A model generated the notes under the pieces. That model did no database searches and was not told where the DNA came from. It was given only the letters and a program-made list of their open reading frames with translations. 64,000 nucleotides of DNA. It comes from Bdellovibrionales bacterium (GTDB taxonomy: Bacteria; Bdellovibrionota; Bdellovibrionia; Bdellovibrionales; UBA1609). The stretch spans positions 35,420-99,419 of the forward strand of contig JBFWVI010000006.1 of the NCBI GenBank assembly GCA_050246815.1, in the 5' to 3' direction. The position numbers and the translations under genes are program-made. Below are positions 4,175 to 27,007 of the stretch, piece by piece. Positions within the stretch are counted from its first letter, which is position 1. Each line of letters opens with the position of its first letter.

Positions 4175-5271
4175 GAACGAACCGCCTCCAACAGGTGCTG
4201 CGCGATCTCTTGATCGGCATGCGGCCGATGGAATTGTCGAATATTTACCGACAGCCGGTCAATGATTTGTCGGTCTGTTTTAAAGCGGACAATCAGTTGC
4301 TCAAAACGATCTGGAGTGAAATCCCGCTGCAACACCATCAGCGCGGCCTCTTTGTGCAACAGAGCTTCCGCATTGCGCTGCTGGTGATTGTCCGCCGCCG
4401 TCGGCAAAGGGATCAACACGGCGGCCTTGCCGCAGGCCGCAAGCTCGGACACAGTTCCCGTGCCCGAGCGCGCAATGATCACGTCAGCCCACGCGTAACG
4501 ACGATCCATGTCGTGCAAATACTCTTTCACTTCCACTTTGGCTTGGCTTTCTCGGTACAAAGCGGCAACTCGCTCATAATCTGCGGGTCCGGTTTGATGG
4601 ACAAACTCCACGTTCTCAAGCCAAGCGCCTCCATGGGCAATGGTGGTGGCCACCACTTGGTTGATGGCCCGCGCGCCCTGGCTTCCACCAAAAATTAAAA
4701 CCCGCAAAGCGGCTGGAGCGGCCGAAGTCGGTGTGGGACTTTGCCCGACGGCCTCAATGGCAGCGCGAACCGGCATGCCGACCTTAAAGATTCGTTTCGA
4801 GTTCAAGCCCTTGGCCGCTTCGTCGAAAACCACCAAACATTCGGCTACAAAAGGCGCCAGCCAACGATTGGCCATACCAGGATGGGCATTGGGCTCCCAC
4901 AAAAATGATTGACGACGCAAAAGTGCTGCCGCCAAGACCACCGGGCCAGTTACATATCCACCCACACCCAAAACCAAAACAGGCTTCATGCGAAACACCA
5001 GCCAGGCTGCGCGTAAAAGTCCCCACGGCAAAAGCAAAAGGGTTTTGAAACGCTCACCAAATCGGGTGTTGCGATTGAGTTTGCCCACGGGCACATGATG
5101 CAAAATAAAACCGTCTCGTGGGACCAATTGATTTTCTAAACCCGTGCGTGTTCCCACAAACTCGACGCGCAGGCCTGGGCGCTGGGCAATCAGCGCGTGG
5201 GCGATGGCCAGGGCCGGATAAATGTGTCCCCCAGTTCCGCCCGCGGCAATCAAGACGACCTGTGATCTCAC
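4171..5271 (-). CDS. murG: Undecaprenyldiphospho-muramoylpentapeptide beta-N-acetylglucosaminyltransferase
   Basis: 366 aa. AAGGTGGHIYPALAIA and FGGSQGA. GTG start overlapping the ftsW stop. Confidence 0.95.
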   Translation of the reverse strand: MRSQVVLIAAGGTGGHIYPALAIAHALIAQRPGLRVEFVGTRTGLENQLVPRDGFILHHVPVGKLNRNTRFGERFKTLLLLPWGLLRAAWLVFRMKPVLVLGVGGYVTGPVVLAAALLRRQSFLWEPNAHPGMANRWLAPFVAECLVVFDEAAKGLNSKRIFKVGMPVRAAIEAVGQSPTPTSAAPAALRVLIFGGSQGARAINQVVATTIAHGGAWLENVEFVHQTGPADYERVAALYRESQAKVEVKEYLHDMDRRYAWADVIIARSGTGTVSELAACGKAAVLIPLPTAADNHQQRNAEALLHKEAALMVLQRDFTPDRFEQLIVRFKTDRQIIDRLSVNIRQFHRPHADQEIAQHLLEAVRS

Positions 5272-6485
5272 CAGCGCTTTGCCTCTCGAGTTTTTACTTC
5301 GGCCCGCGCATCACGACGGCCACGCAAGCTGGCGCGCTGCAGATGCCGCTCTAAACTCAAAAGCCAGCCGCAGGCCAAACCCGTACAAAGCAGTGAGCTG
5401 CCGCCGTAACTTAAAAAGGGCAAGGTCAAACCTTTGGTGGGCAGCATTCCCGTCACTACACCCACGTTGACAAAAACTGAAAGTGCCAAGGTCATGGTGA
5501 TGCCGGTGGCAATCAATCGATCACGATCGTTTTCGGCCCGCATGGCAATTTGCAGGCCGCGAAACACCAAAAATCCATAGATCAACAGCACCAACACGAA
5601 GCCTCCGTAACCGGCCTCCTCACCCAACACAGCCAAGGTGAAATCCGTATGGGCCTCAGGCAAGAAAAAGAGTTTGCCTTGGCCATGGCCAAGTCCCACC
5701 CCAGAAAGCCCCCCTGAATAAAAGCTCAGCATGCTTTGGATCACTTGAAAGCCCTTTTCTGTCGGGTCAGCCCACGGGTCTATAAAGGCCTGAATTCGGG
5801 CCATTCGATAAGGAACATTGATAATCAAAAAATAGGCGCTGACGGCCAGACTTCCCACACCTAACGCCACATAACGCCAGCGCAGTCCATTGATAAAAAC
5901 CAACATCATCGCCACCGAAGCACAAATCGCAAAGCTGCCGAAGTCCGGCTGCTGCAACATCAACAGCATGGGCGTGCCAAGCAACAAGGTTCTTAGCGGC
6001 CACTCCCAAATGCCAAAACGCCGCTTGTGATTGGTCAAGGCCCAGGCCATTAAAAATGGATACGTGACTCGCAACAGTTCGGCGGGTTCAAAGCGCTGCC
6101 CGAAGGGCAACTGAATCCAGCGATGCGCACCGCCTGCGCGAATGGCAACGCTTGGAACAAAGGTGGCCGCCACACCAAGCAAGGCCAACACCCAAAAAAT
6201 CATCGCCATACGCTGAGCCCAAACCCAAGGAAGACGCATCGTCCAAAACAACACGCCCATGGTGGCAACGGCAAAAAACAATTGTTTGCGAAAGAAGAAC
6301 AACCCGTCGTCATAGGTCTCAATGGCGTACATGTAACTTGAACTATAGACCTGCACCAGGCCAAGGCCGATCAAAAATAAAACTGCCACCAAAAGGCTTT
6401 TATCGAAGTTGCGATCCATAAGAAGTAAAAACATATTAACATAGGCGGATGGCGGCCCGAAGCGGGATTGTGTGGCTTTCTGCAC
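5268..6485 (-). CDS. ftsW: SEDS-family peptidoglycan glycosyltransferase FtsW
   Basis: 405 aa polytopic membrane protein. LPEAHTDFTLAVLGEEAGYGG and PTKGLTLPFLSYGGSS. GTG start 16 nt after the stop of the upstream giant lipoprotein gene. Confidence 0.9.
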   Translation of the reverse strand: MQKATQSRFGPPSAYVNMFLLLMDRNFDKSLLVAVLFLIGLGLVQVYSSSYMYAIETYDDGLFFFRKQLFFAVATMGVLFWTMRLPWVWAQRMAMIFWVLALLGVAATFVPSVAIRAGGAHRWIQLPFGQRFEPAELLRVTYPFLMAWALTNHKRRFGIWEWPLRTLLLGTPMLLMLQQPDFGSFAICASVAMMLVFINGLRWRYVALGVGSLAVSAYFLIINVPYRMARIQAFIDPWADPTEKGFQVIQSMLSFYSGGLSGVGLGHGQGKLFFLPEAHTDFTLAVLGEEAGYGGFVLVLLIYGFLVFRGLQIAMRAENDRDRLIATGITMTLALSVFVNVGVVTGMLPTKGLTLPFLSYGGSSLLCTGLACGWLLSLERHLQRASLRGRRDARAEVKTREAKRW

Positions 6486-6501: not shown

Positions 6502-9500
6502 CTAGCGAGCCAAACGGAATTCGTCGCAGCCTTGATTGGTGAAACAATAATCGGTCGAACGGTGGAAGATGTTCACCTGTCGATTCAGATCCGTCAATAA
6601 AGAGGGCGTGATCAAGGTCCTTACACGCTCTTCTATGCTGATATCCATAAAGGGACGCTGTCCTTCAGGCAAACGCTCCACGCGACTTAAGTGATCCGAA
6701 AGTTTTCTTTCAAAATTACCCATTCGGCCAATCTCGTCTTGGATAAAACCAGTGACGGCTTTGTCCATAGTCTGGTCCAAAATGGGCGAAATCGGGATCA
6801 AAAACAAACGCCGTGCCTCTTGTCCCCGAATTTGCTTGTACAGTTGGCCCAAACGCAAATAGCTAAAGTGCTTATACCCCTCCATGCGCGCAAAAGCCGC
6901 CATGAAAGTGTCTTTTCCGGACATCCCGGCTAGCTCTTGCAAAACTGAATCCGCCCCCAAAAGCGGTTTGCTTGCGTAGCGAATAGGCAAATCGTAAAGG
7001 CCCCAAACACTTATTAGCTGCTCATTGATAATGTCGTAATCCACCATTTTGCGTGACAACATGATGTTATCGATTTTGTGGGGCAGCCCCGCCATCTTCA
7101 TCAAACGCCGTTCTTCGCCGTCAATTCGCATGCCCACCAACATCTGCTCATGTATGTGAATAATTTCTTGCGCCGACACCAACTCTTTCTCAGAAGCACA
7201 ATTCATCGGCGGGCGACAAACATCCTCGATCACTTTTTGATCGCCCAAACGATACAAAATGGTGGCCGCATGCAGCCGACTTTCAGCATTGGTTAAACGC
7301 GAAGAACCCATGGTGTGCCAGGCCAAAATGTTGCCGTAGTTGATCAAGTTGATCATACCTTGCGCGACAAACTCGTCTTCATTTTCCAAGAAGGGCAAAA
7401 ACGGCCGCTCTGTTTTATCCAGACTGCCGACCAATTCGTTCTCGATATTCAATTGCCCACCGTAATTGACAATCATGCGCGGCGCGATCGGCGGCAAAGT
7501 TTTGCCGGCTAAAGTCGTGCCTTTTGTCAGGTTTTGGGCGATGCGCAAAAGCACATCGACCTGATTGTAGCGATAACCGCCCTTTGAAAATTCATCCAAG
7601 CCCGTAAAGCCGCTGGGAAGCCCTTTAAAACCGTACTCTTGCTTTAGCTGTGCTTGAGTCACTTCGCCCGCGCGCAAACGCTTAAGCTCTTTGTGGACCT
7701 GCCTCAGATAGGCCTCTTCTCTTAACAGCAGTTCCACGCGAACCTTTTCATCCGCGTGATAAAGATTCATGTAACAGTGCCCAACAGTCCGGAAAGTGCC
7801 TAGTCCCAAACGGAAAAAGTTGACTCGCAGATTATGAAGCTTGTCTAAAACGGCTTTCGAACGTTTAAGTCTTTGGTCAATTCCTGTTGCTCCCGAACGT
7901 TCAAGATATTGCTGATATGACGAAACCAACCCATCCAGCCAGCGCTGCACATTGCCTAAATCCAAACGGACTTCTTCGGCAATTGTGTTAAAACCATTGT
8001 CATCAAACAACATCAGACTTTGAATATGCTTTTCAACATCGCCTTCCTTTTTCGATTTGGTGCTATCCTGACTTTTTGAAGAGACCGCCTCAAAAATTGA
8101 GCCCTGCAGCCCTCCGTACAAGGGACTCAGCCGTAGATCACGCAGATTGACCGTTGTGCTGATCGAGCCGCCATCCACCTGTGAACAAAGGCGCTTGAAC
8201 TGGTAAAAGTGCGGCCCCGCCGTCCTTTGCACCAGCAGCAGACGATACTTATTCACCTCATAAGTGCTACGCGACAAAAGCTTTTCCGCGATTTCGGCGA
8301 CAAATTCATCGGGATTGACCTTAAATTTCTCAAAAACACCTGTGCGCAGAGCAAAATCAAAAGAATAGAGAAGCTCAACAAAACTAAGTGCGGAACGATC
8401 CAACGAGTAATTGAACCAAGCTTTATACTGCCCCAAAAAAAGCTTTTCGATCAGGTTCGAAGAATCGATTTCGAGGGTGTACCAACCACGATCGATGGTG
8501 GCCTTGCCATTGCGCTTTGCCAGGTAATAGGTCAAGGCCATCATTTGCGGAAAGACAGCCATAAACTTGATGTTTTTATGTACCCCACCAAAGTATTGAC
8601 GAGTCTGATCCGCCAGTGCTTCAGACCCGCGCTGCTGTCGAATCAATTTGACGGTCAAATTCAGCAAAGAGGTCAGCCGCGAAGTGAAGCCATCCCAGAT
8701 CGGCTGAGCTTCATTGGCCGCCCATATCGCGTGAAAGAAAAAATTTGGACCTGCCACATCTTGCTTAAAGAATTGCTTTTGTGCCAAATCGTTCGAAGCC
8801 GCCAAAGCTTCCAAGAAACGCAATAAATAAATTTGTCTGGCCTTTTGGGCGACGACTTGTGGGCTGATATCGTTTGCCGCAATCAATTGCAAAGCTTGAT
8901 TGTTAGTCAACTGCCCCAAAAACGCCTGATCAAGCAACTGCAGGGTCAAATCCCACTCACGGATGGGCTGTACTCCAAGCTGGTCCAACATGGAATGATG
9001 TTCTTTTTGCAGACGATTTTGCACCTCACGTAAACTATTCCCGCTGGCAAAATACTGGGCAACACGTTCTTGGCTTTGCTCTGTCGTTCCGACTTTAGAA
9101 AGTCCACCGACTTTCGCCAAGACACCAATCAAAGCATCTGAACTGTAGCCCAAATCATCCATCCGTTTACGGCTGGTTTCATTGAGCAAATCCAAGTGCT
9201 GCACGACAGCCTGCAATTCTGCTTTATTACCACGACGAATCAACTGCTGGGTCAAGGTGGTCAGCATATGCGAAAAATCCCGCGCCTTTTGTTCATCTTG
9301 CATAAGCAAAATTTCAAGATACTTTTGCGCCGGTTTGAGCATTAAAGTGGCCAGCTCAGAATCATAAAGGCTGCCCTTTAGGGTGTAGGCCAATTGCAAC
9401 AAACGATAATAGCGGGGCAGATCATCTTGGTGACGCAAGGCCAGCTGCTGTGCCACAAATGCAGAATTTTTGGCCAAATTAAAAAAAGTCAGATGCTGGC

Positions 9501-9870
9501 AGCGGCTCATTGTTTCACCGCAGCCATAGGTCAGCATGATTTCATAATGTTCCAAAATTTTAACTGTCGCGGGGTCAACCGTTTTTGAACGCGCCGCCTT
9601 CAGAATTTCTTCATTTAAGCGCCACAATTTTTGCTGCGTTTGCGGTTGACCCAACACTTTGGGTGACTGAATCACTTCCGCGCGCAACAGCTCTTGGGTT
9701 AGACTTTGTAAGCTGAGCGCTTCAATGTCAGTCGTGACCTCTGCGGCACGGCTTTCCGCAGGAACCAACGCCGTCGCCGCGGCAGGTTCATGCCTGCGCA
9801 CAGGCTTGCCGCGCTCGACACAGCCGATTAAAAGGCCAAATAAAATGATGAAGCTCAACGTGCGACGCAT
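6502..9870 (-). CDS. Giant (1122 aa) predicted lipoprotein, unknown family; paralogue of 10717-14292
   Basis: Long uninterrupted ORF. Lipobox signal MRRTLSFIILFGLLIGC. Leu/Glu/Lys/Arg-rich, so probably largely helical (composition-based guess). Several blocks align to the 1191-aa neighbour. Confidence 0.8.
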   Translation of the reverse strand: MRRTLSFIILFGLLIGCVERGKPVRRHEPAAATALVPAESRAAEVTTDIEALSLQSLTQELLRAEVIQSPKVLGQPQTQQKLWRLNEEILKAARSKTVDPATVKILEHYEIMLTYGCGETMSRCQHLTFFNLAKNSAFVAQQLALRHQDDLPRYYRLLQLAYTLKGSLYDSELATLMLKPAQKYLEILLMQDEQKARDFSHMLTTLTQQLIRRGNKAELQAVVQHLDLLNETSRKRMDDLGYSSDALIGVLAKVGGLSKVGTTEQSQERVAQYFASGNSLREVQNRLQKEHHSMLDQLGVQPIREWDLTLQLLDQAFLGQLTNNQALQLIAANDISPQVVAQKARQIYLLRFLEALAASNDLAQKQFFKQDVAGPNFFFHAIWAANEAQPIWDGFTSRLTSLLNLTVKLIRQQRGSEALADQTRQYFGGVHKNIKFMAVFPQMMALTYYLAKRNGKATIDRGWYTLEIDSSNLIEKLFLGQYKAWFNYSLDRSALSFVELLYSFDFALRTGVFEKFKVNPDEFVAEIAEKLLSRSTYEVNKYRLLLVQRTAGPHFYQFKRLCSQVDGGSISTTVNLRDLRLSPLYGGLQGSIFEAVSSKSQDSTKSKKEGDVEKHIQSLMLFDDNGFNTIAEEVRLDLGNVQRWLDGLVSSYQQYLERSGATGIDQRLKRSKAVLDKLHNLRVNFFRLGLGTFRTVGHCYMNLYHADEKVRVELLLREEAYLRQVHKELKRLRAGEVTQAQLKQEYGFKGLPSGFTGLDEFSKGGYRYNQVDVLLRIAQNLTKGTTLAGKTLPPIAPRMIVNYGGQLNIENELVGSLDKTERPFLPFLENEDEFVAQGMINLINYGNILAWHTMGSSRLTNAESRLHAATILYRLGDQKVIEDVCRPPMNCASEKELVSAQEIIHIHEQMLVGMRIDGEERRLMKMAGLPHKIDNIMLSRKMVDYDIINEQLISVWGLYDLPIRYASKPLLGADSVLQELAGMSGKDTFMAAFARMEGYKHFSYLRLGQLYKQIRGQEARRLFLIPISPILDQTMDKAVTGFIQDEIGRMGNFERKLSDHLSRVERLPEGQRPFMDISIEERVRTLITPSLLTDLNRQVNIFHRSTDYCFTNQGCDEFRLAR

Positions 9871-9879
9871 GCTCTTCCT

Positions 9880-10713
9880 TTAAAACTGGTAAGCCGCCGA
9901 AAATGAAACGATTCGGCGGTACTGATCGATGTACCACAGCGAAACCCGTCCATCTTCGGTGTAGCCACCATTGCCGGTGGATAAACTCATGCTCCATGCT
10001 TCGCCCAAAACACTTAGGCTGGCGGTGTTGGAGTACGAGTAATCCCAAAAACCATCCAAATAGCGGGTTTGTTTTAAACCAAAACCCGCGCTCAAACTAA
10101 AATGCGAACCCAACTTCAAAGTATTGCCCCAGCTGTAGGTAACTGAGGTTCCCGGATTTGCGGCGCCACCGCTCGAATAATCATAGCTGTTCAACAACTC
10201 CGACAACGCCAGCGAGTGAGTCATCGAAAAACGATCGTCGAAAAAATTCCAAGTGCCGCCGCCGCTCATCGACAACAATCCAAGATAACCTCCGCGGCGA
10301 CTGGCGGTGTCCATCAATGCCGTGCCGCCAGCGTTGATAAACCAAGGGCTAAAATCACCGGGATTGTAACTCAAGTTCAAACTCGGGTTGACACCGGTCG
10401 ACTCCAAAGCGGAGTCTTCTTGCTTTTTGTCAATCTGCCCATCGACGGTTGTGAAGTTCGCCGATAAACCCATGGACAAGTTCCATCTGGGGTTGATCAC
10501 ATAACCAATATCCACGCTTAAGCCCTGATAATAAAGGCGAGGCATCGATCGGTCCGCCAAATCCGTCGAAACACCATAGCTTGTGCCAAACGACCAAGAA
10601 CTGACCTTGGGTGCGTCCACCTTGACCACAGACTTGGGTGTTTTAGCAGATGCGGCCAACGCGTTGGCCTGCAAGCCGCCGATCAGAATAAGAATTAGCA
10701 CACGGGCATTCAT
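9880..10713 (-). CDS. Small outer-membrane beta-barrel protein (predicted)
   Basis: 277 aa. Signal peptide MNARVLILILIGGLQANALA. Alternating hydrophobic/polar strands rich in G/S/Y/N. C-terminal ...SFSAAYQF with terminal Phe. 3-nt and 9-nt gaps to its neighbours. Confidence 0.7.
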   Translation of the reverse strand: MNARVLILILIGGLQANALAASAKTPKSVVKVDAPKVSSWSFGTSYGVSTDLADRSMPRLYYQGLSVDIGYVINPRWNLSMGLSANFTTVDGQIDKKQEDSALESTGVNPSLNLSYNPGDFSPWFINAGGTALMDTASRRGGYLGLLSMSGGGTWNFFDDRFSMTHSLALSELLNSYDYSSGGAANPGTSVTYSWGNTLKLGSHFSLSAGFGLKQTRYLDGFWDYSYSNTASLSVLGEAWSMSLSTGNGGYTEDGRVSLWYIDQYRRIVSFSAAYQF

Positions 10714-10716
10714 GGT

Positions 10717-13700
10717 TTAGAAAGCCTCCGCCGCGTTCTTTGTTTTAATCAAAGCCTGCCCACGACGTGACAAATAATCGGTGTTGAACTTGTTGCCCGT
10801 CTTGTGCGTGAAGTTGTTGTGACTGGCCGCCAAATTGCCCAGCATCAAATTGTCCACAACACCCAAAGGCTCTAATCCTTTTGAGCTTTCAATATCCACA
10901 ACGCGAGCATTTTCATCCAAACGCACTCGGGTTTTGAACAAATCCCGAAAGGATGGATCCCTTTCAAATTCAGGAGCCTTGGCAAAAAACTCAAACAGGC
11001 GGGCTAAAATACGATTGATCGGCTTGCCATAAACGGAATATAGAGTGCTCTGAAATTCCGGTCCAGGATCAAAAATAATCACACCTTCATTGTTCAAAGT
11101 GTTAAACAAGGTGTGCCCGCCCGATAAAAGGCCCCTTAATCCACCACTTAAACCGGCGCGCTCGTACAATCGCATCATCAGGCTGCGCAGCAGGGGTTGG
11201 GCCCGCATCGTGACGGGCTCAAGTAGAAATCCTTCTAAACTTTCCACTTTCATCCGTCCATCTAGACCCATGATGGTGGCGTTTTCGACATCAAAGTCAT
11301 TCAGGTTCACCAGCTGCACGATGTCTTTGAAAATATTGGCCAGCTCGCCCGCACTGATACTTTGCGGCTTGTCGCCCTCGACGGAAATCTGCCCCATCAA
11401 GTACAGATCCACCGATGTATCCAGATAATCTTTAAAGGCACTCAATTGTGCGCCTTGCCCCTGCCACTCGGCATAGGACGCGCCGGATTGCCCGCTGAAA
11501 TGCTTCAAGCCCTGCCGGATGAAGTCTTCCTTATTTGGCATGTACTGAATCACCTCGGCTGGACTTTTCACCGACAGGTCCATGCGCTCTAACCCGTTGG
11601 GCACCAGCACCCGCACAGAGCGAGGGCGAACCAATCGAACCAACTCGGGGCCGTACACTTGGCGTTCTCGGTCCGTAACTTGGGTGAAAATATCCCCTTC
11701 GACGCGCTTTTTCACTCGCATAAAAAAGTCGTACTGGGACATGCTGTAGCCTTCTAATCGCAGATGATCAAATTTGACGGCCCTGTCAGAGAAGTGCTCT
11801 TTGTTGAGCTGCTGCAAGCGGGCGCTCTGCCCCGCCACACCTTTAACGTCATGCACGCTTTTCAACATGTCATGAATGCGGCCCAGATGGGCGCGTTCTT
11901 CTTGCACCAGGCGATACGAACGCATCATCTCCACCTTGTAGAGTTGTTTGGTGCATTCGAACATGCTTTTTCTATACTTCATGTATGTGGTAAAAAAGCG
12001 CCGTTCACGCGACTCCACTTCACGAACGATATTGCGAATATTTTCCAGATCGGGATGAGCCTCATCACGGCTCTTGATCTCACCAGTTGCCAGCATGTGG
12101 TTTTCGAGCAGGGCGATGATCGCCCGCACAAAGGTCAACTTCGGCTCAACATCATCAAAGATCGTGGCAACCGTTTGCTGTGATTCTTTGCTGTAGACTT
12201 TTTTGAGCAAATCAAAATACTTGTTGTCACCCATGCCCACGTAGGTGAACTTGCCCAAATCCAAGAGTTCAACCTCTGTCGTGGGGGCTGCGGGAACCGA
12301 GCCAAGAGGCGCCAGCTCATAGCGACAGATATTCACCAATGCGTTGAAGGACGCATGCCCCAAGACATTGCGCTCGTACTCCATGTACTTGTCTTCCAAG
12401 AAGCGCCGTTGACCCTGTAGATATTTGCCCAAGGTCAGTTCAAAAAATTTGGCACGGTCGGATTGTCCAGAGATCTTCTCGTCGACGGTGAAGGTCTCAA
12501 GCGCTTGAGTCTTCAACGCGTAATGAAAGGCGTAAAAAAGACGCTCTCGCTCTAAACGCACGATGTCCGAAGTGAAGCGGAACCAAAGGTCTTGAGTGTT
12601 GTACAGCCCATCAAAAAGATCGCTCACCACGGTTTCAGCCTGAATAGTGAACTCGGCTCCCCACCATGACTTTTCTTTGACAGTGCCTTTGTTTTTGGCC
12701 AAAAAGTACGTCATGCCGATCATGTTGGGGTAAACAGAAATGTAATGGACGTTTCGGCTGAAGCTTTTCATCAGCGCACTGGTGTCAGTGAACTCTTGGG
12801 GGATCACCGCGCGACGTTTAAAATAGGAGCTCACAAATTTATCCAGCAAGTCCAACTTGCTTTGAGTTTTCATCCAACGCGTCGACAAATCGCGACTTAC
12901 CATAATAGCTTCAGAAAAGATCGCACCGCTGGGGATCGACTTCGACTGGTAAATTCCCATCATAAAATCGATTGTTTCGATGGTGAGATGGGCCAATTGC
13001 ACGCGCATGTAGGTCCGCAGTGTCGAAAGCAATTCGGTTTGGGCGCGGCTAGCATCCGTTCGCTCCAAGATGCTCATCGCCTCACCTGAGCTTAAATGTT
13101 CATTGAACAGTCGATCCAAAATAAAAAAGTACTCATTGTAAAAACTCGACTCAACGTTTTTGAGTCGGTTGAGATCTCCGGCCATCCCCAAGTTTGAAAG
13201 AATATCGGCCCCGTTCATATGAGAGCGCCCATGCAGCTTGTTGACGATCTCGTTAAAAGAAGGAAAATCCTTGTCGCTTTCGTTTTGTGACTCTTTGATC
13301 GCGAGAAGCATGGAATCCGAAAGCTTGAACTGCGTCGCATCCTTGTATAAGCAGCACTGGGTTGCCAGATTCAACATGGCCTTTGAGCCATGTCGAAAGG
13401 TGTCGCTACGGCGGCTTGAAAAAGTCCACGGTACAAAGTTTTCGATGAACTCACGGATCTCTTTGCTATTCACGTCTTTGGGCTTAAAGCGACTGATGAG
13501 CAATTCAAACATTGAGGTGTAAGTTTCACTCATATAACCGATGTCACCACCCTGAAGCACCAAATAATCCAGCAAGCGGATGTACTTCATGAAAGCAAAA
13601 GACATCTCGGAATCGTTGAGTAGCGTGTTTTTAACCGTGTAGGCCATGGCCAAACGGCGATAGCGCAAATCGACTAGCTTGCGGCAGGCCGCACTGGCTT

Positions 13701-14292
13701 CGATGCAGGTTTTGGGCGATTTATGTGTCCTCATCTCGGCTTCAAGCTTGACGTCATCTTGAGTGGCCAATCGCACCAGAATGCGCGCACTTAATGCGTC
13801 TGTTGCAAAAAGCTTCGAATTGATACAACCACGTTTCAAGTCGACAGAGCAGCCAGCCATCATTGCGTTTTCATAGCGGCGAAACCACTCTTGTTGGGCA
13901 TTGGCGGTCAGCCCAGCCGGCTGCGTGGTCAAAGCCTTCCAAAATGCACTGTTAAAAATTCGGATGGCTTTCTCTAAACGCACCGAAATATTGGCCGGAG
14001 TGCTGATGTACTGCACATCCAGCACATAACGAGCAAGGGGCACTAAAATCGCCTGCTCCATTTCAGTTGCAGGACGCTTCAGATCTTCTTCAAACTTGTC
14101 CAGATTCAATTGCGCAAAGCTATTGCCCATCGCGCTGATCTGCTGGGGGGTGTGAAGTGTGGTCACGCCCCAGTCCTTTGCGCCCTCGTGCTCTTGGCGT
14201 TTGCGCTGTTTGGGCGAGCACGCCGCTAGAGCCACGACAAGACTTAAGAGGCTGATTTTCAAGACGATATTTTTTTGCGTCGATGTCTTCAT
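10717..14292 (-). CDS. Giant (1191 aa) predicted lipoprotein, unknown family; paralogue of 6502-9870
   Basis: The ORF track starts at 14337. I prefer ATG 14292 (MKTSTQKNIVLKISLLSLVVALAAC lipobox), preceded by AAGGAGG-N5, which removes the overlap with the upstream gene. Confidence 0.8.
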   Translation of the reverse strand: MKTSTQKNIVLKISLLSLVVALAACSPKQRKRQEHEGAKDWGVTTLHTPQQISAMGNSFAQLNLDKFEEDLKRPATEMEQAILVPLARYVLDVQYISTPANISVRLEKAIRIFNSAFWKALTTQPAGLTANAQQEWFRRYENAMMAGCSVDLKRGCINSKLFATDALSARILVRLATQDDVKLEAEMRTHKSPKTCIEASAACRKLVDLRYRRLAMAYTVKNTLLNDSEMSFAFMKYIRLLDYLVLQGGDIGYMSETYTSMFELLISRFKPKDVNSKEIREFIENFVPWTFSSRRSDTFRHGSKAMLNLATQCCLYKDATQFKLSDSMLLAIKESQNESDKDFPSFNEIVNKLHGRSHMNGADILSNLGMAGDLNRLKNVESSFYNEYFFILDRLFNEHLSSGEAMSILERTDASRAQTELLSTLRTYMRVQLAHLTIETIDFMMGIYQSKSIPSGAIFSEAIMVSRDLSTRWMKTQSKLDLLDKFVSSYFKRRAVIPQEFTDTSALMKSFSRNVHYISVYPNMIGMTYFLAKNKGTVKEKSWWGAEFTIQAETVVSDLFDGLYNTQDLWFRFTSDIVRLERERLFYAFHYALKTQALETFTVDEKISGQSDRAKFFELTLGKYLQGQRRFLEDKYMEYERNVLGHASFNALVNICRYELAPLGSVPAAPTTEVELLDLGKFTYVGMGDNKYFDLLKKVYSKESQQTVATIFDDVEPKLTFVRAIIALLENHMLATGEIKSRDEAHPDLENIRNIVREVESRERRFFTTYMKYRKSMFECTKQLYKVEMMRSYRLVQEERAHLGRIHDMLKSVHDVKGVAGQSARLQQLNKEHFSDRAVKFDHLRLEGYSMSQYDFFMRVKKRVEGDIFTQVTDRERQVYGPELVRLVRPRSVRVLVPNGLERMDLSVKSPAEVIQYMPNKEDFIRQGLKHFSGQSGASYAEWQGQGAQLSAFKDYLDTSVDLYLMGQISVEGDKPQSISAGELANIFKDIVQLVNLNDFDVENATIMGLDGRMKVESLEGFLLEPVTMRAQPLLRSLMMRLYERAGLSGGLRGLLSGGHTLFNTLNNEGVIIFDPGPEFQSTLYSVYGKPINRILARLFEFFAKAPEFERDPSFRDLFKTRVRLDENARVVDIESSKGLEPLGVVDNLMLGNLAASHNNFTHKTGNKFNTDYLSRRGQALIKTKNAAEAF

Positions 14293-14303
14293 CTTGGCCT
14301 CCT

Positions 14304-17300
14304 TTATTTGATGTACAGGTTGGTGATAGGTAGCCAAAAACCGTTCAGCATGGCGGCGGCGGCCGAGATCTGCCCCACGCCGCGCATAGACTGGTCACAA
14401 ACCACACGCATCGGCGTGTCCTTGCGGAAACCGGTCATTCGACTCGCGACAGCTTTTTCATATTTGCTAAATTCTTTTTCGATCGAGTTATAAAATTCGA
14501 TTGTTTTCTCTGTTCCCACTTCTTCCGCGATGCCGGCGGGAATATAGAAGCCCTCAAAGCCTGCTTCGACGTTGTTTTGGCCGGTCTCAGTGGTGCTAAA
14601 AAATTCGCTCAAACCCGTGCCGTTGGGGGCGCTCACACAAGTCGAAGTCACTTGTTCGTGCTTTTCTGTCAACATGGCCTTCACGGATTGTTCGGTTAAT
14701 TTGTCACCCGCCGGTGAATCGTAATCGATTTTGATCGCAATGATGTAGGCGCTGGTGTCATCCAAAAAGCGCATTTGAGTCAGCGGCACCAAGAACATGT
14801 CATTCACCCGCACCATGGCCGTGCCTTCTGGCAATAAATAAACATCACGCGCCGTGCGCGAACGCTGCAGCATCAAATCAAACATGGTTCCGGTGAAGCG
14901 CTTATAGTGATTGGCTTTGGTGCGGATATCTTGCTGCGAAGAATTGGCCGTGATCAAAACCGCGGCCAAAGTAAACTGAAATTCGGTCTGGTTTTGCATC
15001 ACGCGATTGAAGTCTGACGGCAATAGGCCGGGGTCAGAGCTCCACCAATTTTGCCGCGGCAACATCCAGCTAGAAGATAAAATGATATGACCTAGGCTAT
15101 TGCGTTCAGTTTTTTCGAGGCCTTCAAAGCGCATATTGCTTTCGACCATGTCTGAAATCGTGCGGGTGTATTCACCCGGATAAAGCGTGCGGTAAAGCGG
15201 CGATCGGCCCTCTGTGGTGTAGAACGGATTCGCCCAGCCCGGCCACATGAAAGCATAGGGTGAAGTTAAAGCGTAAAGGCTTGCGATTTTCATCGGCAAG
15301 TTGCTGAGCTGATACCACTTTCCGATCATTTGGCGATAGTCCGTGCTGACATCACCAACCAAGTAGCCGCTCATGATGTAGCGTTCGCGCGTGTCGATTT
15401 TGCTATAATCAGATTCGGGTAAGGTTAATAAAAACTTCATTTCGTTCAATGCCAACTTCGAAGCACGGCACAAATCGCGAATTCCTTCTGATTTGCGGCC
15501 ATGGCGGAACATCAACTCTTTCAGTGCTTCGTGGGCCACACCCGACTCATCCTTGGCCATGCACGATGCCGAAAATTCATACAAAGCCGCTTTGTCACGC
15601 CGAATGCGATCCCAAATCGGAACCAGTTCCCGATCCGTGCTCAAACGTAAACGCATCTCATCGTAGAATAAACGGACGCGGCCCATGATCGAAAAAGTTC
15701 GGGCCCAAAGACGCCATTCGCTGTTGTCCGCGTCAGAGCGATGACCGCCGACAAATGAATACAAATCGCTGACCAAATCATCCGTCAGCCATTCAAAATA
15801 AAAACGCACCAGTTCTTCCGCCGTGTTGCCACGATCCCAGCGATTGCAAAACGGGTCCGCACTGTAAGAAGCTTCCACGTCATTGCACTGTGGGAAGTAA
15901 CCCGTGGGTAATTTGCCTTGCTTTGTGACGGTCATGTCCGGTACGCGACCATTTTCAGGCATTTTAAAGTAGTCGAATTTGTCTGCATCCTTATTGTAGG
16001 TCGTGTATTCTTGTTTGTATAGGTAGCGCAGAACCAAACGGTCCTGGGGACCCGGCATCAAGGTTTGACTGTCCAAAGCCATCCAGGTGCGGCCGCTCAA
16101 GTAGCCCATGATGGAGCTTAGGTTGGTGAACTCATGTTCAGGATTGGCCAGTGCTGCCAATGATTTTTGAATAGCGCTTGGGACCGTGCCTTCCTCGGGC
16201 ACGATATTTTCTTTGAACTGGTGACCCAGCCCGTACATATGTCCCAATTCATGCAAAAGCAGTTTCATCATCATGCCGTCAAAGTGCTCGCGGAAGGGGC
16301 GGCGAGCGGCATTTTTACCTTCGCGTGCCATGGCTGAGCGCAATTGGGCGGCGGTCAAATCCTTATCGGGAAATGCAGAAGAGGCCTGCATGCGGTAGCC
16401 ACGCAGCCTCTTGACGCGCTCACCGCCATCTTTGGTGTCTCGCACGATGGCGCTAATCGCTGTGCGATCTTCCGCGCTCATCGAAAGCGTGCTTTCCGTA
16501 TTGCTTTTACCTTGAGTCATTCCCAGATGCTCTAAAAAGCTGCGACCGGCAAAACGTTTTTCCGTCTCGCGCTTCATTTTTTGCGCTTCCGCCATCAAAT
16601 CAGCCGCGACCTTGTTGCCAAACTTAGGATTCGACATGGCCGTCATTTGTTTGCGCAATGACTGAATCTGTTCTTCGATTTTTTTCATGTCGGGAGATCC
16701 GGTTTTGCCGCCCCCGTGCTCACTGGCTAAACGGACCATTTCACTGTTCAAGAATTCGCGACCGTGCTCATTTAATTGCTGCTGCAACACGCTTCGGTTG
16801 TTACCATTGAAGTTTTCAAATCCTTCTGGCAACCCCAATGCCGAAGGTATTCCCATCGCTTTTGCGTCGCCTGGGAAAATGCGCATTCCCGCAAGGCTGC
16901 CACTGCCGCCATGACCGGGATCATTTTCAGAATACATTTGAACCAGGCTTTCCATCAGGCCGCCAAAAACCAAAACATGGCCCCACAGGATCTTGCCGTT
17001 CTGCAAATCGGCGTGGGCATACCCCACACCAAGAGCGTTGTTTTCAGAAATGCGGCGATCGGCCACATAGGTGATGCCTGGGTAGCGCAAGTCAAAATCA
17101 TGCTTGCGAGATTGCACGATGGGCTCAAAGGCTTTTTGCCCTTTGGGCACAACACCCTCTTCTTGATAAACTTGATTCCATTTCTCAATGCCAGCGATCA
17201 ATAAATCTTGAATGGCCTTGTCTTCGGCGCCGTTGATATAAAGCTTCACGGGCTTAGACACATCCCAGTGTGCGGCGTACAGCTCTTCGGCCTGATCATG

Positions 17301-18098
17301 GCGTTTACCCATGACATGCAAGATGTTCATCAAACGCGAGTTTTCTTGGTGATAGGGTGTTTTCTGAAAATGTGGGTCATGCTCAAAACGCAAAAAATTG
17401 ACGCGCACATGGGCCTGCGCATTGGCGGCGCTAATGCGCGACCCGGTTGACAGACTCATATTCAAGGTGAAACCCAAAAAACCGCGCTGCTTGTCCCACT
17501 CAATATCGGTGGCCGTCGAGTGTGATAGGCCATCGTTCATCGACTTCGACCAGAATAAGCCGGGATCCACCAGCTGAATACCCGCCAAATTAAGCTTGAT
17601 CATGGGACGTGCTGAAAAATCACTCCGGGTGGAATTTTCAACCCACTCGTTGGTCTCGCGGCCATGTTGGTCTTTGGCGCGCTCGTAATAAAAATGACTC
17701 ACGATTGGAATGCGAACATACTCTTTCCAGTGCTGGATTTCGCTGTCTGCACCCTTTCCTTTTTTGGGTTTTTGCATGAAGGTGGGGTTGACCAAACGGC
17801 CGACCAACCAGTTTTGGTCTTTGATTTCAAACACCAAATTGCAATGGGGGGAGGCATGATCCAAATGACCGAAAAGCCATTCACCGTATTCACCCGCTTC
17901 AACTTCGGGGGCCCAGCCGCACATGAAATATTTAGGTTTTCCATCGGTTGAAAGAAAGAAGGATTTTTCGACGTTCAAAACATCCGGCACCGGGGTCTCG
18001 GTGGCGCGCTCTTTAAAGGCCTTGAAGTTGAAGATGCTTCCTTTACCTTGGCAGGCCGTCAGGGCCAAAAATGCCGTGAAGCTGACCACGAATCGCAT
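14304..18098 (-). CDS. Large zinc metalloprotease lipoprotein (met-zincin, DUF4953-like signature)
   Basis: HELGHMYGLGHQF (HExxHxxGxxH) followed by SSIMGY, a Met-turn-like element. The ORF track starts at 18218. I prefer ATG 18098, which gives MRFVVSFTAFLALTAC (lipobox). 1264 aa. Confidence 0.8.
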   Translation of the reverse strand: MRFVVSFTAFLALTACQGKGSIFNFKAFKERATETPVPDVLNVEKSFFLSTDGKPKYFMCGWAPEVEAGEYGEWLFGHLDHASPHCNLVFEIKDQNWLVGRLVNPTFMQKPKKGKGADSEIQHWKEYVRIPIVSHFYYERAKDQHGRETNEWVENSTRSDFSARPMIKLNLAGIQLVDPGLFWSKSMNDGLSHSTATDIEWDKQRGFLGFTLNMSLSTGSRISAANAQAHVRVNFLRFEHDPHFQKTPYHQENSRLMNILHVMGKRHDQAEELYAAHWDVSKPVKLYINGAEDKAIQDLLIAGIEKWNQVYQEEGVVPKGQKAFEPIVQSRKHDFDLRYPGITYVADRRISENNALGVGYAHADLQNGKILWGHVLVFGGLMESLVQMYSENDPGHGGSGSLAGMRIFPGDAKAMGIPSALGLPEGFENFNGNNRSVLQQQLNEHGREFLNSEMVRLASEHGGGKTGSPDMKKIEEQIQSLRKQMTAMSNPKFGNKVAADLMAEAQKMKRETEKRFAGRSFLEHLGMTQGKSNTESTLSMSAEDRTAISAIVRDTKDGGERVKRLRGYRMQASSAFPDKDLTAAQLRSAMAREGKNAARRPFREHFDGMMMKLLLHELGHMYGLGHQFKENIVPEEGTVPSAIQKSLAALANPEHEFTNLSSIMGYLSGRTWMALDSQTLMPGPQDRLVLRYLYKQEYTTYNKDADKFDYFKMPENGRVPDMTVTKQGKLPTGYFPQCNDVEASYSADPFCNRWDRGNTAEELVRFYFEWLTDDLVSDLYSFVGGHRSDADNSEWRLWARTFSIMGRVRLFYDEMRLRLSTDRELVPIWDRIRRDKAALYEFSASCMAKDESGVAHEALKELMFRHGRKSEGIRDLCRASKLALNEMKFLLTLPESDYSKIDTRERYIMSGYLVGDVSTDYRQMIGKWYQLSNLPMKIASLYALTSPYAFMWPGWANPFYTTEGRSPLYRTLYPGEYTRTISDMVESNMRFEGLEKTERNSLGHIILSSSWMLPRQNWWSSDPGLLPSDFNRVMQNQTEFQFTLAAVLITANSSQQDIRTKANHYKRFTGTMFDLMLQRSRTARDVYLLPEGTAMVRVNDMFLVPLTQMRFLDDTSAYIIAIKIDYDSPAGDKLTEQSVKAMLTEKHEQVTSTCVSAPNGTGLSEFFSTTETGQNNVEAGFEGFYIPAGIAEEVGTEKTIEFYNSIEKEFSKYEKAVASRMTGFRKDTPMRVVCDQSMRGVGQISAAAAMLNGFWLPITNLYIK

Positions 18099-18391
18099 AC
18101 TTACGCTTAAGCTGTTAAAACCATTTGGCTTTTTGTACACAAAGACCCTCTCTGCAAACATTGTCGATTTTACATGGTACAAATTACAGGCCATTGTCCA
18201 ACCCTGTTTTATATGCATAACTATTTGAATTTATTAATTAAAATTTGCACTCAAAGCGTCCTCATCTCACCCCCCTGTCAGCTTGGCCCCAAAAGTGACG
18301 CAAAAGGGCGCCTTTGAAGGGCAGGTTTTTTGGGGTACTTTGGCTGCTCTTTTGACCCCGCAAAACCGCTTTAGAAAGGCCTTTCAAAGTC
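18099..18391. promoter_or_regulatory. Divergent intergenic region (promoters for the protease operon and the AI-2E permease gene expected here)
   Basis: 293-nt non-coding gap between divergently oriented genes. Contains an AT-rich stretch, ataactatttgaatttattaattaaaatttgca. No individual -35/-10 assigned. Confidence 0.35.
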
Positions 18392-19444
18392 ATGAACAAA
18401 TACAGCAAATGGGCCTTGATCGGCCTGGCAACGGCGGCCTTCGTTTTGATTTTTATTCCCTTTTACTCACAGATTTTGTTGGCCGGGGTTTTTGCCTTTG
18501 CATTGGACCCGCTCTCGCGCGTGCTGGTGTCACGTCGATTTATTCAAAACTCCAAAATCAACTTTCGCCGCAAGCAGTGGGTGGCAATTATTTTGGTGGC
18601 GCTCTTTATGCTGATCACAACACCGATTTCGATCGCCTTTTATGATGTGTACGGAACCGTGAGTGAGGCCGCCACCAACGGTCTGCAAAACTCTGAATTC
18701 TATGCGGACTTAATGCGCCTGAAGGCTGCGGTGGTCCCCTATGTGGAGGACACGATTCAATCCTTCAATCTGAAGAGACAAGTCAACCTGACCACTTTGG
18801 CCGAGAATACCTTAAATGATTTGGGCAAGCGAGCCATGGCCTTTGTCGGCGCGGCACTTGGGCAACTGCCGGACTTTGTACTTTTCATTGTTGTGTTCGT
18901 CTGCGCTCTTTACTTTTTCTTGGCTGAGAATCGCCACCTGCGTGCGGCCCTGGTGCAAAGTAAAGCCATTACCCCACAAGAGCTGGATCGTATCATCTTG
19001 ATCTTTCAAAAGGCCTGTTCTTCCACAATTCTGGCTTCGGTGATCACAGGTCTGGTGCAAGCTTCGATCGTGGCGATTGGAAGCGCGATTTTAAAGACCG
19101 GCGATTTCTTTTTGATCTTTGTGGTCACCTTCTTTTTGTCATTTGTTCCGGTCATTGGCGCGGCCCCCGTGGCGCTGCTGTTGTGTCTGTTGGCTTTGGT
19201 GAAGGCCTCTTACGGCACTGCCGTGGGTTTTGCCATTTTGGCTGTTATCACGGGCAGTATCGACAATGTGCTACGCCCCTATTTGGTGAGTGGCGATGAT
19301 GACGTTCATCCCATCCTGGTCTTGCTGGGGCTGCTGGGCGCCATCACAATTTTTGGACTGCCGGGGCTGTTTTTAGGACCCGTGATCACCTCGGTTACCG
19401 TGCAGCTTTACAAGGAGTACGCACTGGGAACACCTGACGTTTAA
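18392..19444 (+). CDS. AI-2E family (PerM/YhhT-like) membrane transporter
   Basis: 350 aa polytopic membrane protein. C-terminal GSIDNVLRPYLVSG motif is typical of the family. Confidence 0.8.
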   Translation: MNKYSKWALIGLATAAFVLIFIPFYSQILLAGVFAFALDPLSRVLVSRRFIQNSKINFRRKQWVAIILVALFMLITTPISIAFYDVYGTVSEAATNGLQNSEFYADLMRLKAAVVPYVEDTIQSFNLKRQVNLTTLAENTLNDLGKRAMAFVGAALGQLPDFVLFIVVFVCALYFFLAENRHLRAALVQSKAITPQELDRIILIFQKACSSTILASVITGLVQASIVAIGSAILKTGDFFLIFVVTFFLSFVPVIGAAPVALLLCLLALVKASYGTAVGFAILAVITGSIDNVLRPYLVSGDDDVHPILVLLGLLGAITIFGLPGLFLGPVITSVTVQLYKEYALGTPDV

Positions 19445-19505
19445 GCCACAAGACTTAGATCCGGTTGGCCTGGCCAAAACACCGCGAATCAGGTTTAATT
19501 TTCTT

Positions 19506-19973
19506 ATGACCAAAACCATTCGAGCCTCGTTGTTGTTCGCGATTTCTTTGTCGGCCCTTCAAGCTTTGGCGTTCAACCCCGATAAGTGCGGCGAACTCTT
19601 TCCGAAATCCGGTGAAACGCATCGACCCTATTTGGCACCCATCTATTCTTCGACCATCGCACCGTCGGTGACCTCGTATTTTTCGTCTTTCGGCAAGTGC
19701 GCCATGTACAATTCAAAAATTTCCATTCAGCGCAAGAAATTCATCAAAGCCAGCTATGATCACCTCAGCACCGAAGCGGCTCAAGGCCAAGGTGAGTACG
19801 TGGCCGCGCTCGCAAGTTTGAGCGGCTGCCCATCGGAATCCCATGCGGCGTTCTCGCACGGACTTCAGCGCCAATACAGTCAAGTTTTTGCTCGTGGCGC
19901 AGACGGCTTGGACCAACAAGTCGACGCCATGATTCAAGACGATTCTTGGCTGGCTTTAAGCTGCCGCCAGTAG
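19506..19973 (+). CDS. Small secreted protein, DUF3015-like
   Basis: 155 aa. Signal peptide MTKTIRASLLFAISLSALQALA. The C-terminal LSTEAAQGQGEYVAALASLSGC...F...Q..YSQVF pattern matches my recollection of DUF3015. Confidence 0.6.
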   Translation: MTKTIRASLLFAISLSALQALAFNPDKCGELFPKSGETHRPYLAPIYSSTIAPSVTSYFSSFGKCAMYNSKISIQRKKFIKASYDHLSTEAAQGQGEYVAALASLSGCPSESHAAFSHGLQRQYSQVFARGADGLDQQVDAMIQDDSWLALSCRQ

Positions 19974-20030
19974 CTTAGCTTCGGCCCACCTCTTGCTTTG
20001 TTCACACCACGTGACCTTCAGGGGCGTTAA

Positions 20031-20939
20031 ATGGCATTGCACCACCTAAAAGTTGCCTTGTTTTGTCTGCAGCTTCTGCTTTGTGGCACAGCTCGCGCCG
20101 CGGGTCCGATTTGCAATGGCGAACTGAAACCCGGCGAATCGCGCGATTACTGCGGTCACAAAGCCAGCACAACCGGTGTTTGGCCCTGCTACAGGCTGAC
20201 GCGAAATGCTCAAAATCCAAAACAATACACCGCCTTACTTACACTGCGCTTCAATTACCTGGAATCTCACTGCCGCGGTAACCAGGAGTGCGAGTATGGA
20301 GATGCCAACCACTTGATGCAAAAAATGACGGACCCAAAAAAAATTGTCCAGATGGATCGTGATTATCGAGCCTTTGTGCAAGGCTGCTATGACGACGCCA
20401 ACCCCTTTTTGAATGGACCCAACTATGAAAATCTAAAGCTGACACTTGGTGCTCCGATGGCAGCTCACGCCGGCGCCCCACCTGTGCGCGAAGTCAACGT
20501 TTACGATTACGCCGTGGACCGTGAGTCCGACGACACTTGGAGCCCACTTGGTGAGATGTCTTGCGCCACCGTGATGCACGAAACCATGCACATCCTGGGA
20601 CTGGTGGACGAGTATGAGGAAGCAGAAGGCCACTACCTAAATAAGAAAGGCCAGCGCACCCATCGCGAGACGGACACATGGCGTTCCATTTACAGCTGCC
20701 GCAGTCTTGGCCCTGAAAGCTCGATCATGTCGAATCCCTTCGCGGGTGATGACATCGAGGAGGACCCCTCCGGAACGACGGCAATTTTCGCCGCGCAGTT
20801 TCGTGAAATTGTTTACCATGATTGCCCCGAACTCAATCGCGTCTACCGTTCGTGCGCCCGCAATGCCTACCGTGGCGCCGGCCACTGCCTAAAGGTCGAC
20901 CCCATTTGCAAAGCACCGGATTTCAAATGGCTGGAGTGA
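20031..20939 (+). CDS. Secreted Cys-rich zinc metalloprotease, HExxHxxGxxD type (snapalysin-like motif)
   Basis: 302 aa. Signal peptide ...LLLCGTARA. VMHETMHILGLVDEYE, with ESSIMSNPF as a possible Met-turn. Many Cys residues. Confidence 0.7.
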   Translation: MALHHLKVALFCLQLLLCGTARAAGPICNGELKPGESRDYCGHKASTTGVWPCYRLTRNAQNPKQYTALLTLRFNYLESHCRGNQECEYGDANHLMQKMTDPKKIVQMDRDYRAFVQGCYDDANPFLNGPNYENLKLTLGAPMAAHAGAPPVREVNVYDYAVDRESDDTWSPLGEMSCATVMHETMHILGLVDEYEEAEGHYLNKKGQRTHRETDTWRSIYSCRSLGPESSIMSNPFAGDDIEEDPSGTTAIFAAQFREIVYHDCPELNRVYRSCARNAYRGAGHCLKVDPICKAPDFKWLE

Positions 20940-21529: not shown

Positions 21530-21534
21530 ATTTT

Positions 21535-21569
21535 ATCTGTTCCAATTTTTTGGAACAGATATGTTCCAA
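21535..21569. promoter_or_regulatory. Perfect 11-bp stem palindrome plus a third half-site (TGTTCCAA x3); candidate operator or hairpin
   Basis: ATCTGTTCCAA-TTTT-TTGGAACAGAT at 21535-21560. TGTTCCAA appears again at 21562-21569. The element lies about 40 nt upstream of the TIGR02147-like gene start (21610). Confidence 0.5.
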
Positions 21570-21609
21570 AATCTTTGACCTCGTCGTTTGGTCTCAGTAT
21601 CTGGGCTTC

Positions 21610-23900: not shown

Positions 23901-23906
23901 AAACCC

Positions 23907-24470: not shown

Positions 24471-24506
24471 ATTTATGCACTGCTTCTGCAAAAAGAAGCA
24501 GCCACA
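24426..24506. repeat. 26-nt perfect inverted repeat with a 29-nt spacer immediately downstream of murD
   Basis: 24426-24451 TGTGGCTGCTTCTTTTTGCAGAAGCA. 24481-24506 is its exact reverse complement (checked base by base). Each arm contains a nested 7-bp hairpin, TGCTTCT-N6-AGAAGCA. Confidence 0.9.
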
Positions 24507-25893: not shown

Positions 25894-25895
25894 AC

Positions 25896-26972: not shown

Positions 26973-27007
26973 GAAACTGATGCCGCTCTTGTTTTGAAGT
27001 TTTTAAC

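Follow-up and report, generated by a model that had tools for sequence, protein, structure and literature searches.

Which system is encoded by four consecutive genes standing directly upstream of the division gene ftsW in a bacterium of the order Bdellovibrionales, and does this position say anything about its function? The genes, called g1 to g4 here, lie in a stretch of 64,000 nucleotides of contig JBFWVI010000006.1 (assembly GCA_050246815.1, forward strand positions 35,420 to 99,419), which in its full length is referred to as the window. Their products are identical to the deposited proteins MGE33856xx/MGE07627xx, which are labelled "hypothetical protein". A first-pass annotation of the window had proposed an undescribed envelope system, consisting of a giant met-zincin lipoprotein, two further giant lipoproteins and a small outer-membrane (OM) barrel, with an operon reading into ftsW. 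An undescribed and conserved envelope gene set was indeed found: the gene order is fixed, and the two further giants and the barrel fall outside Pfam, NCBIfam, PADLOC, PHROG and the PDB. Our reading, to which we give a probability of roughly 60%, is that one operon encodes a Bdellovibrionota-specific, OM-anchored metalloprotease complex.

A four-gene cassette in fixed order

All four open reading frames (ORFs) were located on the minus strand at the positions first assigned to them (Table 1), co-directional and with gaps of 3-11 nt. Read from the sequence, the gaps g1/g2, g2/g3 and g3/g4 amount to 11, 3 and 9 nt. At the g1/g2 junction (TAA-AGGAGGCCAAG-ATG) the Shine-Dalgarno sequence AAGGAGG of g2 runs over the g1 stop codon, as had been noticed before. 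The g2/g3 junction reads TAA-ACC-ATG and the g3/g4 junction TAA-AGGAAGAGC-ATG, with AGGAAG contained in the 9 nt.

A scan of 185,579 species-representative genomes, together with look-ups of genomic context, yielded 69 loci (numbered with the prefix L below). By record title, all 69 derive from metagenome-assembled genomes (MAGs) of Bdellovibrionota and none from a named isolate; the taxa named are Pseudobdellovibrionaceae, Bdellovibrionaceae, Bdellovibrio sp., Bdellovibrionia, Oligoflexia and, with one fragment, Halobacteriovoraceae. Co-occurrence, as expected for a genuine gene set, was observed throughout: tblastn, ORF chaining and annotation with hidden Markov models (HMMs) found the order g1-g2-g3-g4 in ~35 loci, with junctions mostly of -4 to ~+25 nt. 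Because the same order and equally tight junctions are present in ~35 independent loci, the four-gene arrangement is far beyond chance. It extends to P0203 and P0183, the most remote giants that were tested (profile E values of 1e-41 and 1e-55; loci L075/L076), where a protease-like protein (1364-1444 aa), a giant, a small protein (296-365 aa) and a second giant follow each other. The divergence of the cassette roughly parallels the phylum, down to 27-30% identity, and some MAGs hold two or more copies. Clustering of 319 flanking ORFs yielded dcw (division and cell wall) genes and, in one clade, an OmpR-type response regulator as recurrent neighbours; the rest were variable.

The giant met-zincin lipoprotein g1

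Translation of g1 verified a signal peptide with the lipobox LTAC (MRFVVSFTAFLALTAC, from 18098), the zinc-binding motif HELGHMYGLGH (HExxHxxGxxH) and the Met-turn SIMGY; the lipoboxes of g2 (LAAC) and g4 (LIGC) and the C-terminal AAYQF of g3, all named in the first-pass annotation, were equally verified. A total of 59 full-length homologs of g1 were found, 1180-1315 aa in length and 29-57% identical, and all of those with a named source belong to Bdellovibrionales or Bdellovibrionaceae. In an alignment of 36 homologs the residues C16, H616, E617, H620, G623, H626, M664, G665 and Y666 were invariant, and the met-zincin site was likewise invariant across 53 homologs. The Met-turn of the family reads S-I/V-M-G-Y, and the third His is followed by Q or N (GH[QN]F). 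Because the HExxHxxGxxH site with its Met-turn Tyr is invariant, g1 is predicted to be a catalytically competent protease of the metzincin clan, MA(M).

In astacins and serralysins the Met-turn Tyr, two residues past the Met, serves as fifth zinc ligand. The residue after the third His is E in astacins, P in serralysins, S in matrixins and D in adamalysins. With astacins and serralysins g1 shares a Met-turn of the form S-x-M-x-Y; it differs from these four metzincin families by the Q/N after the third His and shows no RTX or pro-domain homology. The g1 of the window had no match to PF16313 (DUF4953, "Met-zincin") at E<=1 and no significant Pfam or NCBIfam family, but 21 of its 36 relatives matched PF16313 (E<=0.01, best 3.3e-8), 10 of the 36 matched Peptidase_M10, and precomputed PF16313 labels were present on 11 of the 59 homologs. 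We conclude that g1 is a divergent relative of PF16313/DUF4953 and represents a new, highly elaborated branch of the met-zincins. Proteases of PF16313 have, like g1, the HExxHxxGxxH zinc site followed by the Met-turn; what sets g1 apart is its nature as a ~1250-aa lipoprotein, an apparent helical insertion of ~200 aa, extra beta and helical domains, and fixed operon partners. Searches of the literature for DUF4953, DUF5117 and PF16313, and for Bdellovibrio together with metzincin or dcw, returned nothing relevant.

The AlphaFold2 (AF2) model of g1 (residues 65-1264) reached a mean predicted local distance difference test (pLDDT) of 84.6 and a predicted template modelling score (pTM) of 0.83. 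Its secondary-structure elements start with a beta-rich N-terminal domain, followed by an alpha/beta segment in which their order fits the upper subdomain of met-zincins, and by a sequence-variable helical block of ~200 residues. The active-site helix comes next, then the Met-turn and a helix that closes the catalytic part, and additional helical and beta domains make up the C-terminal side. Judged by this order of elements, the ~200-aa block would be an insertion placed after the beta-sheet subdomain and ahead of the active-site helix. A sequence-profile search of the PDB with g1 gave only a 23-residue HExxH match to archaemetzincin. Foldseek found nothing significant in the PDB for the g1 model (met-zincin matches at E>=0.38); the weak top matches were snapalysin, profragilysin-3, ADAMTS4 and BaP1. 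The tether past the lipidated Cys carries a conserved ETPxP motif. A homology test between g1 and g2 was negative.

Two paralogous helical giants and a small predicted barrel

The lipobox Cys is invariant in the ortholog alignments of g1, g2 and g4, and nearly all orthologs have a lipobox-like context. Using BLASTP, g2 and g4 were found 21% identical across 898 residues (E=1e-17), and hhalign of the profiles of 30 and 26 orthologs gave a probability of 100% (E=3e-101, 1044 columns). Judged by these alignments, g2 and g4 are full-length paralogs, of which g4 appears to diverge faster. Common to both are four near-invariant Cys (C148, C156, C656 and C780 in g2 numbering) and the motifs SVYPNM..YFL and PWF.FG.D. 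A further shared motif, K-x-x-P-R/I-x-x-H-E, is situated ~10 aa past the lipidated Cys, within a tether modelled as disordered by AF2. An exhaustive HMMER search over 1.84 billion cluster representatives collected 378 members of this giant family at E<=1e-3, nearly all of them 1050-1400 aa long.

Searches with the giants matched no Pfam family, tetratricopeptide repeats (TPR) included, and no NCBIfam family; the sequence-profile search of the PDB with g2 gave no relative. The AF2 model of g2 (pLDDT 88.6, pTM 0.79, 788 residues above 90) is almost wholly helical. Foldseek with this model found no real match in the PDB and nothing in BFVD (viral predicted structures). The best PDB matches were karyopherin/HEAT solenoids (E ~4e-4), with TM scores of 0.1-0.16 and root mean square deviations above 30 A; this is a generic helical resemblance, and a HEAT/karyopherin-type fold was rejected for g2. 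Like these eukaryotic alpha-solenoids g2 is a large all-alpha protein, but there is no fold match, and hhalign of the quarters of g2 against each other detected no internal repeats. The giants are classed as a new family, with a large, non-repeat all-alpha fold predicted by AF2 that is unmatched in PDB and BFVD. The first-pass annotation could not place the two giants in a family known to it, and it missed that they are paralogs of each other. In one locus (L038, 13480-21195, on a contig named "tig...") g2 and g4 are each split into three ORFs, reflecting either pseudogenisation or frameshift errors of the assembly.

The g3 protein has a signal peptide of the signal-peptidase-I type and no lipobox in 28 of 28 orthologs. 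Its family shows ~12-14 stretches of alternating (dyad-repeat) hydrophobicity, and the 28 orthologs end in a C-terminal beta-signal of the form ..RRIxxLxxSYxF/I/L, also ..YEI. No Pfam match above threshold was obtained for g3, and its PDB sequence-profile search was empty; below threshold, different members of the family matched three different families of OM protein barrels. By its sequence g3 looks like an OM beta-barrel. Searches for DUF560 (PF04575) found no match for g3 at E<=1 and none for the 28 family members at E<=0.1.

Table 1. Features of the cassette, its junctions and related genes. Coordinates refer to the window; those of rows that name a locus (L number) refer to that locus.
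Feature	Position	Strand	Remarks
g1, met-zincin lipoprotein	14304-18098	minus	1264 aa
g2, lipoprotein with predicted all-alpha fold	10717-14292	minus	1191 aa
g3, predicted OM beta-barrel	9880-10713	minus	277 aa
g4, lipoprotein with predicted all-alpha fold	6502-9870	minus	1122 aa
ftsW	5268-6485	minus	neighbour, outside the four-gene module; start GTG 6485 or, likelier, ATG 6434/6419
Zinc-binding motif of g1, HELGHMYGLGH (HExxHxxGxxH)	16221-16253	minus	from translation
Met-turn of g1, SIMGY	16101-16115	minus	from translation; Met, Gly and Tyr invariant
Junction of g1 stop and g2 Shine-Dalgarno sequence	14293-14306	minus	TAA-AGGAGG-ccaag-ATG
Tether motif of g2	~14179-14217	minus	residues ~26-38
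Tether motif of g4	~9781-9819	minus	residues ~18-30
Divergent intergenic region between g1 and AI-2E-family transporter gene	18099-18391		sole obvious site for a cassette promoter (putative)
Barrel-protease pairs beside a full cassette	L023 18-9746; L004/L028 4698-9836 and 21791 onward; L064 11-5253		
OmpR-type regulator	L048 8549-9283; L029 6307-7080; L046 4647-5498; L019 2742-3761; L013 355-1071		

Position of the cassette beside ftsW

In the window, g4 is separated from the longest ftsW ORF by TAG + 16 nt + GTG. Public gene calls favour, in two of three cases (388 and 383 aa), an ATG 51-66 nt downstream, as do the N-termini of orthologs, so that the gap measures 16-82 nt, dependent on the start. 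The 16-nt gap described before is correct for the GTG start and grows to as much as 82 nt if the favoured ATG is used. With either start the gap contains no terminator-like site, and its fold is not unusually stable (z = -0.65); the possibility of a terminator ahead of ftsW in the window, which would have spoken for separate transcription, was not borne out. Downstream of ftsW follow murG, murC, murB and ddl. The dcw genes ftsI, murE, murF, mraY and murD occupy 24508-31890 (murD 24508-25893), and the break between murD and ftsW spans ~18 kb (6502-24491) with 11 non-dcw genes, six of them on the opposite strand. After murD come a same-strand gene for a 194-aa membrane protein, six plus-strand genes (18392-23900) and the minus-strand cassette. 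In this genome, we infer, the upstream dcw promoter does not reach ftsW-murG-murC-murB-ddl. Since 5.5 kb of convergent and opposite-strand genes separate murD from g1, ftsW of the window is probably expressed by read-through from the cassette or from a promoter inside g4. A search of the candidate promoter region upstream of g1 found no strong sigma-70 match.

Across the carriers, the cassette was found within the murD/ftsW gap in ~14 of ~39 evaluable genomes; in ~25 further cassette genomes dcw neighbours were absent. A co-directional arrangement of g4 followed by ftsW, with gaps of 16-131 nt, was seen at three of the 13 visible junctions (the window, which is L001, together with L006 and L051). 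At nine loci (L007, L009, L011, L012, L015, L022, L052, L061, L071) cassette and ftsW are on different strands, and ~160-770 nt separate ftsW from the divergent g1. At L065 a g3-like gene reads into ftsW and g1 is divergent; with this locus included, ~10 of the 13 visible junctions are opposite-strand. At L026 and L066 the murD side alone is visible, and L022 also shows g4 converging on murD. At all 13 visible loci the cassette is the immediate upstream neighbour of ftsW, and extra genes are present on the murD side only. In a neighbor-joining (NJ) tree of g1 the ftsW-linked loci fall mainly into one clade, which also holds the unlinked L002, L008 and L010; L051 and L065 are placed elsewhere, the deep branches of the tree being unreliable.

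Adjacency to ftsW recurs and co-transcription does not; the cassette is not a conserved co-transcription unit with ftsW. As ~10 of 13 junctions are opposite in orientation, co-transcription with ftsW has not been selected. With three co-directional against ~10 opposite junctions and ~25 genomes outside the dcw cluster, the cassette was also dismissed as a member of the dcw operon. The operon reading into ftsW, as originally proposed, is a property of the window genome and a few relatives, and it fails as a defining property of the system. In one part of the family the cassette repeatedly adjoins the 5' side of ftsW, as could result from a single ancestral insertion into a split dcw cluster. 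Read most simply, the cassette has long resided in this split cluster, with inversion in place and subsequent relocations. Insertions would have been tolerated only on the murD side because no promoter is disturbed there.

At four loci with an inverted cassette (L009, L015, L061, L071) a partly conserved block of ~60 nt was observed beside the ftsW start, with the pattern ..CACCCTAAGT..AAAATCAT..AAAG.CAAAAATTGTCG..CTGTC... This block may be a promoter or leader of ftsW. No shared palindrome was evident in the alignment of the divergent ftsW-g1 intergenic regions. Two contigs of MAG JBGSQJ01 are of note: that of L065 closes with ftsW(-), g3-like(-) and g1'(+), and that of L026 begins inside a different g1, continuing with g2-g3-g4 into murD(-). 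The murD/ftsW gap of this MAG may contain two different cassettes in tandem, or the bin may be mixed.

Proposed mechanism

All four products would be exported via the Sec pathway. The products of g1, g2 and g4 would be lipidated and, as they have no Asp at position +2, carried by the Lol system to the OM, into which g3 would be inserted by BAM. There, the g3 barrel may act as membrane partner of the g1 protease, either as anchor or as passage. The products of g2 and g4 could form a hetero-oligomeric scaffold which binds or gates substrates for g1, or holds g1 latent. Docking or sorting signals may reside in the conserved motifs of the tethers, K..PR..HE for the giants and ETPxP for g1, and translational coupling would set the stoichiometry of the four products. 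Some loci point to the relation between the parts: tandem pairs of a g3-like gene and a gene for a DUF4953 protein of 1150-1370 aa, without giants, are present in L023 (two pairs), L004/L028 and L064, which indicates a paralogous expansion of barrel-protease pairs; a giant-free pair of barrel and DUF4953 protease is also recorded for L072. As these pairs do without giants, barrel and protease would be the core and the giants accessory subunits. Concerning the job of the complex, extracytoplasmic proteolysis at the OM for feeding or predation is about as probable as not, perhaps slightly less, and is favoured by the restriction of the family to one phylum, the presence of at least two copies in several MAGs and the expanded barrel-protease pairs. 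A clearly less likely job is to remodel the envelope or division apparatus of the cell itself.

Several points weigh against the proposed complex. Its formation, topology and subunit roles are what we infer from the gene set, its placement at the OM, on the periplasmic face or on the cell surface, is predicted, and its substrate and physiological role are guesses. The assignment of g3 as a barrel draws on features of its sequence and the sub-threshold Pfam matches. Furthermore, ~7-8 loci have no g3 between the giants (L039, L041, L049, L053, L058, L063, L068), meaning that the barrel is not obligatory in cis; a g3-like gene is located just upstream on the other strand in L039 and L065, and in L072 a g3-like gene precedes g1. 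Finally, history by itself does not fully account for a cassette that recurrently adjoins ftsW in one orientation or the other.

Alternative explanations

The position of the cassette could also reflect a role in division, with an OM-anchored adaptor and protease processing peptidoglycan enzymes or parts of the divisome and being genetically wired to ftsW. Helical OM lipoproteins paired with an envelope protease, LbcA-CtpA in Pseudomonas aeruginosa and NlpI-Prc in Escherichia coli, are a known design for the control of cell-wall hydrolases and have a link to cell wall and division (PMC8764530, PMC11021448). The seat directly upstream of ftsW at every visible locus, with additional genes tolerated toward murD alone, the occurrence of this linkage in three branches of the g1 tree and the terminator-free junction of the window agree with such a role. 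The comparison does not extend to the components: those systems combine an S41 serine protease with a TPR adaptor, and here a lipidated met-zincin is accompanied by a barrel gene and by giants of 1100-1200 aa that have no TPR matches and, in g2, no sequence repeats. No S41 or TPR Pfam matches were obtained for g1, g2, g4 or their families, by which membership in this group was discarded, and homology to LytM or peptidoglycan-binding domains was equally missing. The cassette genomes without a dcw neighbour and the predominance of junctions opposite in strand to ftsW speak against division as well, multiple copies and expanded barrel-protease pairs suit a hydrolase arsenal better than a housekeeping factor of division, and, given the weak deep NJ branches, a single ancestral insertion could explain all linked cases. 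Taken together, we regard a division role as improbable. The septal or prey-wall role considered in the first-pass annotation keeps the rank of conjecture that it was given there.

Slightly better placed, still unlikely, is the idea that g3 is a translocon similar to Slam or the type 11 secretion system (T11SS), which brings all three giant lipoproteins to the cell surface, their targets there being proteins of the prey or the environment, with the tethers as recognition signals. In Slam/T11SS the gene of the DUF560 OM barrel adjoins genes of surface lipoproteins (PMC5449769, PMC8406197), and g3 likewise is always found among or beside lipoprotein genes that it possibly serves, in a ratio of 1:1 with DUF4953 lipoproteins elsewhere. 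The conserved linear motifs in the disordered tethers just past the lipid Cys and the confinement of the family to a predatory phylum fit this idea. Yet g3 carries neither DUF560, for which none of the 28 family members gave a match, nor a periplasmic TPR domain, so that it was not assigned to Slam/T11SS. For the passage of folded cargo measuring 1100-1250 aa, which is 5-10 times larger than known Slam cargo, a barrel of ~250 aa is small, and some cassettes have no barrel in cis. A related and similarly doubtful extension of our own reading is that the small OM barrel threads or docks the conserved N-terminal tethers of all three lipoproteins above 1100 aa, two of them with a new all-alpha fold, forming a gated proteolytic chamber of a kind not known before, surface-exposed or periplasm-spanning, which in Pseudobdellovibrionaceae-like lineages stands beside ftsW for coordination with septation or predatory wall remodelling.

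Cargo of a mobile or defence island, landed by chance in the dcw cluster and without any role in the envelope, would account for the non-dcw block of 18 kb that interrupts murD-ftsW and for its G+C content of 0.48-0.51, slightly below that of the flanking dcw genes (0.53-0.56). This explanation was rejected as highly improbable. Scans for tRNA and Rfam elements found neither an integration site nor a leader RNA, and integrases and flanking repeats are missing. PADLOC (defence) and PHROG (phage) scans of the four proteins gave no matches, export signals are present on all four products, and the family occurs in one phylum only, with a divergence roughly in step with it. Compared with these alternatives, the OM-anchored metalloprotease complex remains our preferred reading.

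Neighbouring genes

The six plus-strand genes between the cassette and murD include an AI-2E transporter, a DUF3015 protein, a small zincin-like protein and a DUF4423/HTH (helix-turn-helix) regulator. The zincin-like protein (20031-20939, plus strand) is a secreted protein of 302 aa with the motifs HETMHILGLVDEY and SIMS; it resembles a second, small zincin-like protease and had no Pfam match. A different small zincin-like lipoprotein of 219 aa is encoded upstream of the cassette in L019, L029, L046 and L048. The DUF4423/HTH gene (21550-22416, plus strand) lies 3.4 kb upstream of g1, and homologs were found 2-3 kb upstream of g1 in two unrelated loci (L041 7263-8129, L053 5313-6215). Should these genomes carry many members of the family, the recurrence could be due to chance. 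The OmpR-type response regulator of one clade is divergent from g1 and located 26-1781 nt upstream, which hints at two-component control of the cassette in this clade.

Significance

Every carrier of the cassette seen so far is an uncultured MAG, which limits the interest of the finding. The cassette devotes ~11.6 kb to four exported proteins; this coding sequence is strictly conserved and translationally coupled and has no annotation, literature or structural relatives. With the giants comes a new family of lipoproteins, 1100-1400 aa long and comprising ~380 clusters at 50% identity, for which AF2 confidently predicts an all-alpha fold unmatched in PDB and BFVD. No counterpart of the four-part system has been described, although the general combination of an envelope lipoprotein with a protease and a barrel is a familiar one. 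Bdellovibrionota attack the envelopes of others while rebuilding their own, and a phylum-specific protease machine at the OM would be a good candidate for either task. The recurrent seat of its genes beside ftsW offers a concrete hypothesis in this respect.

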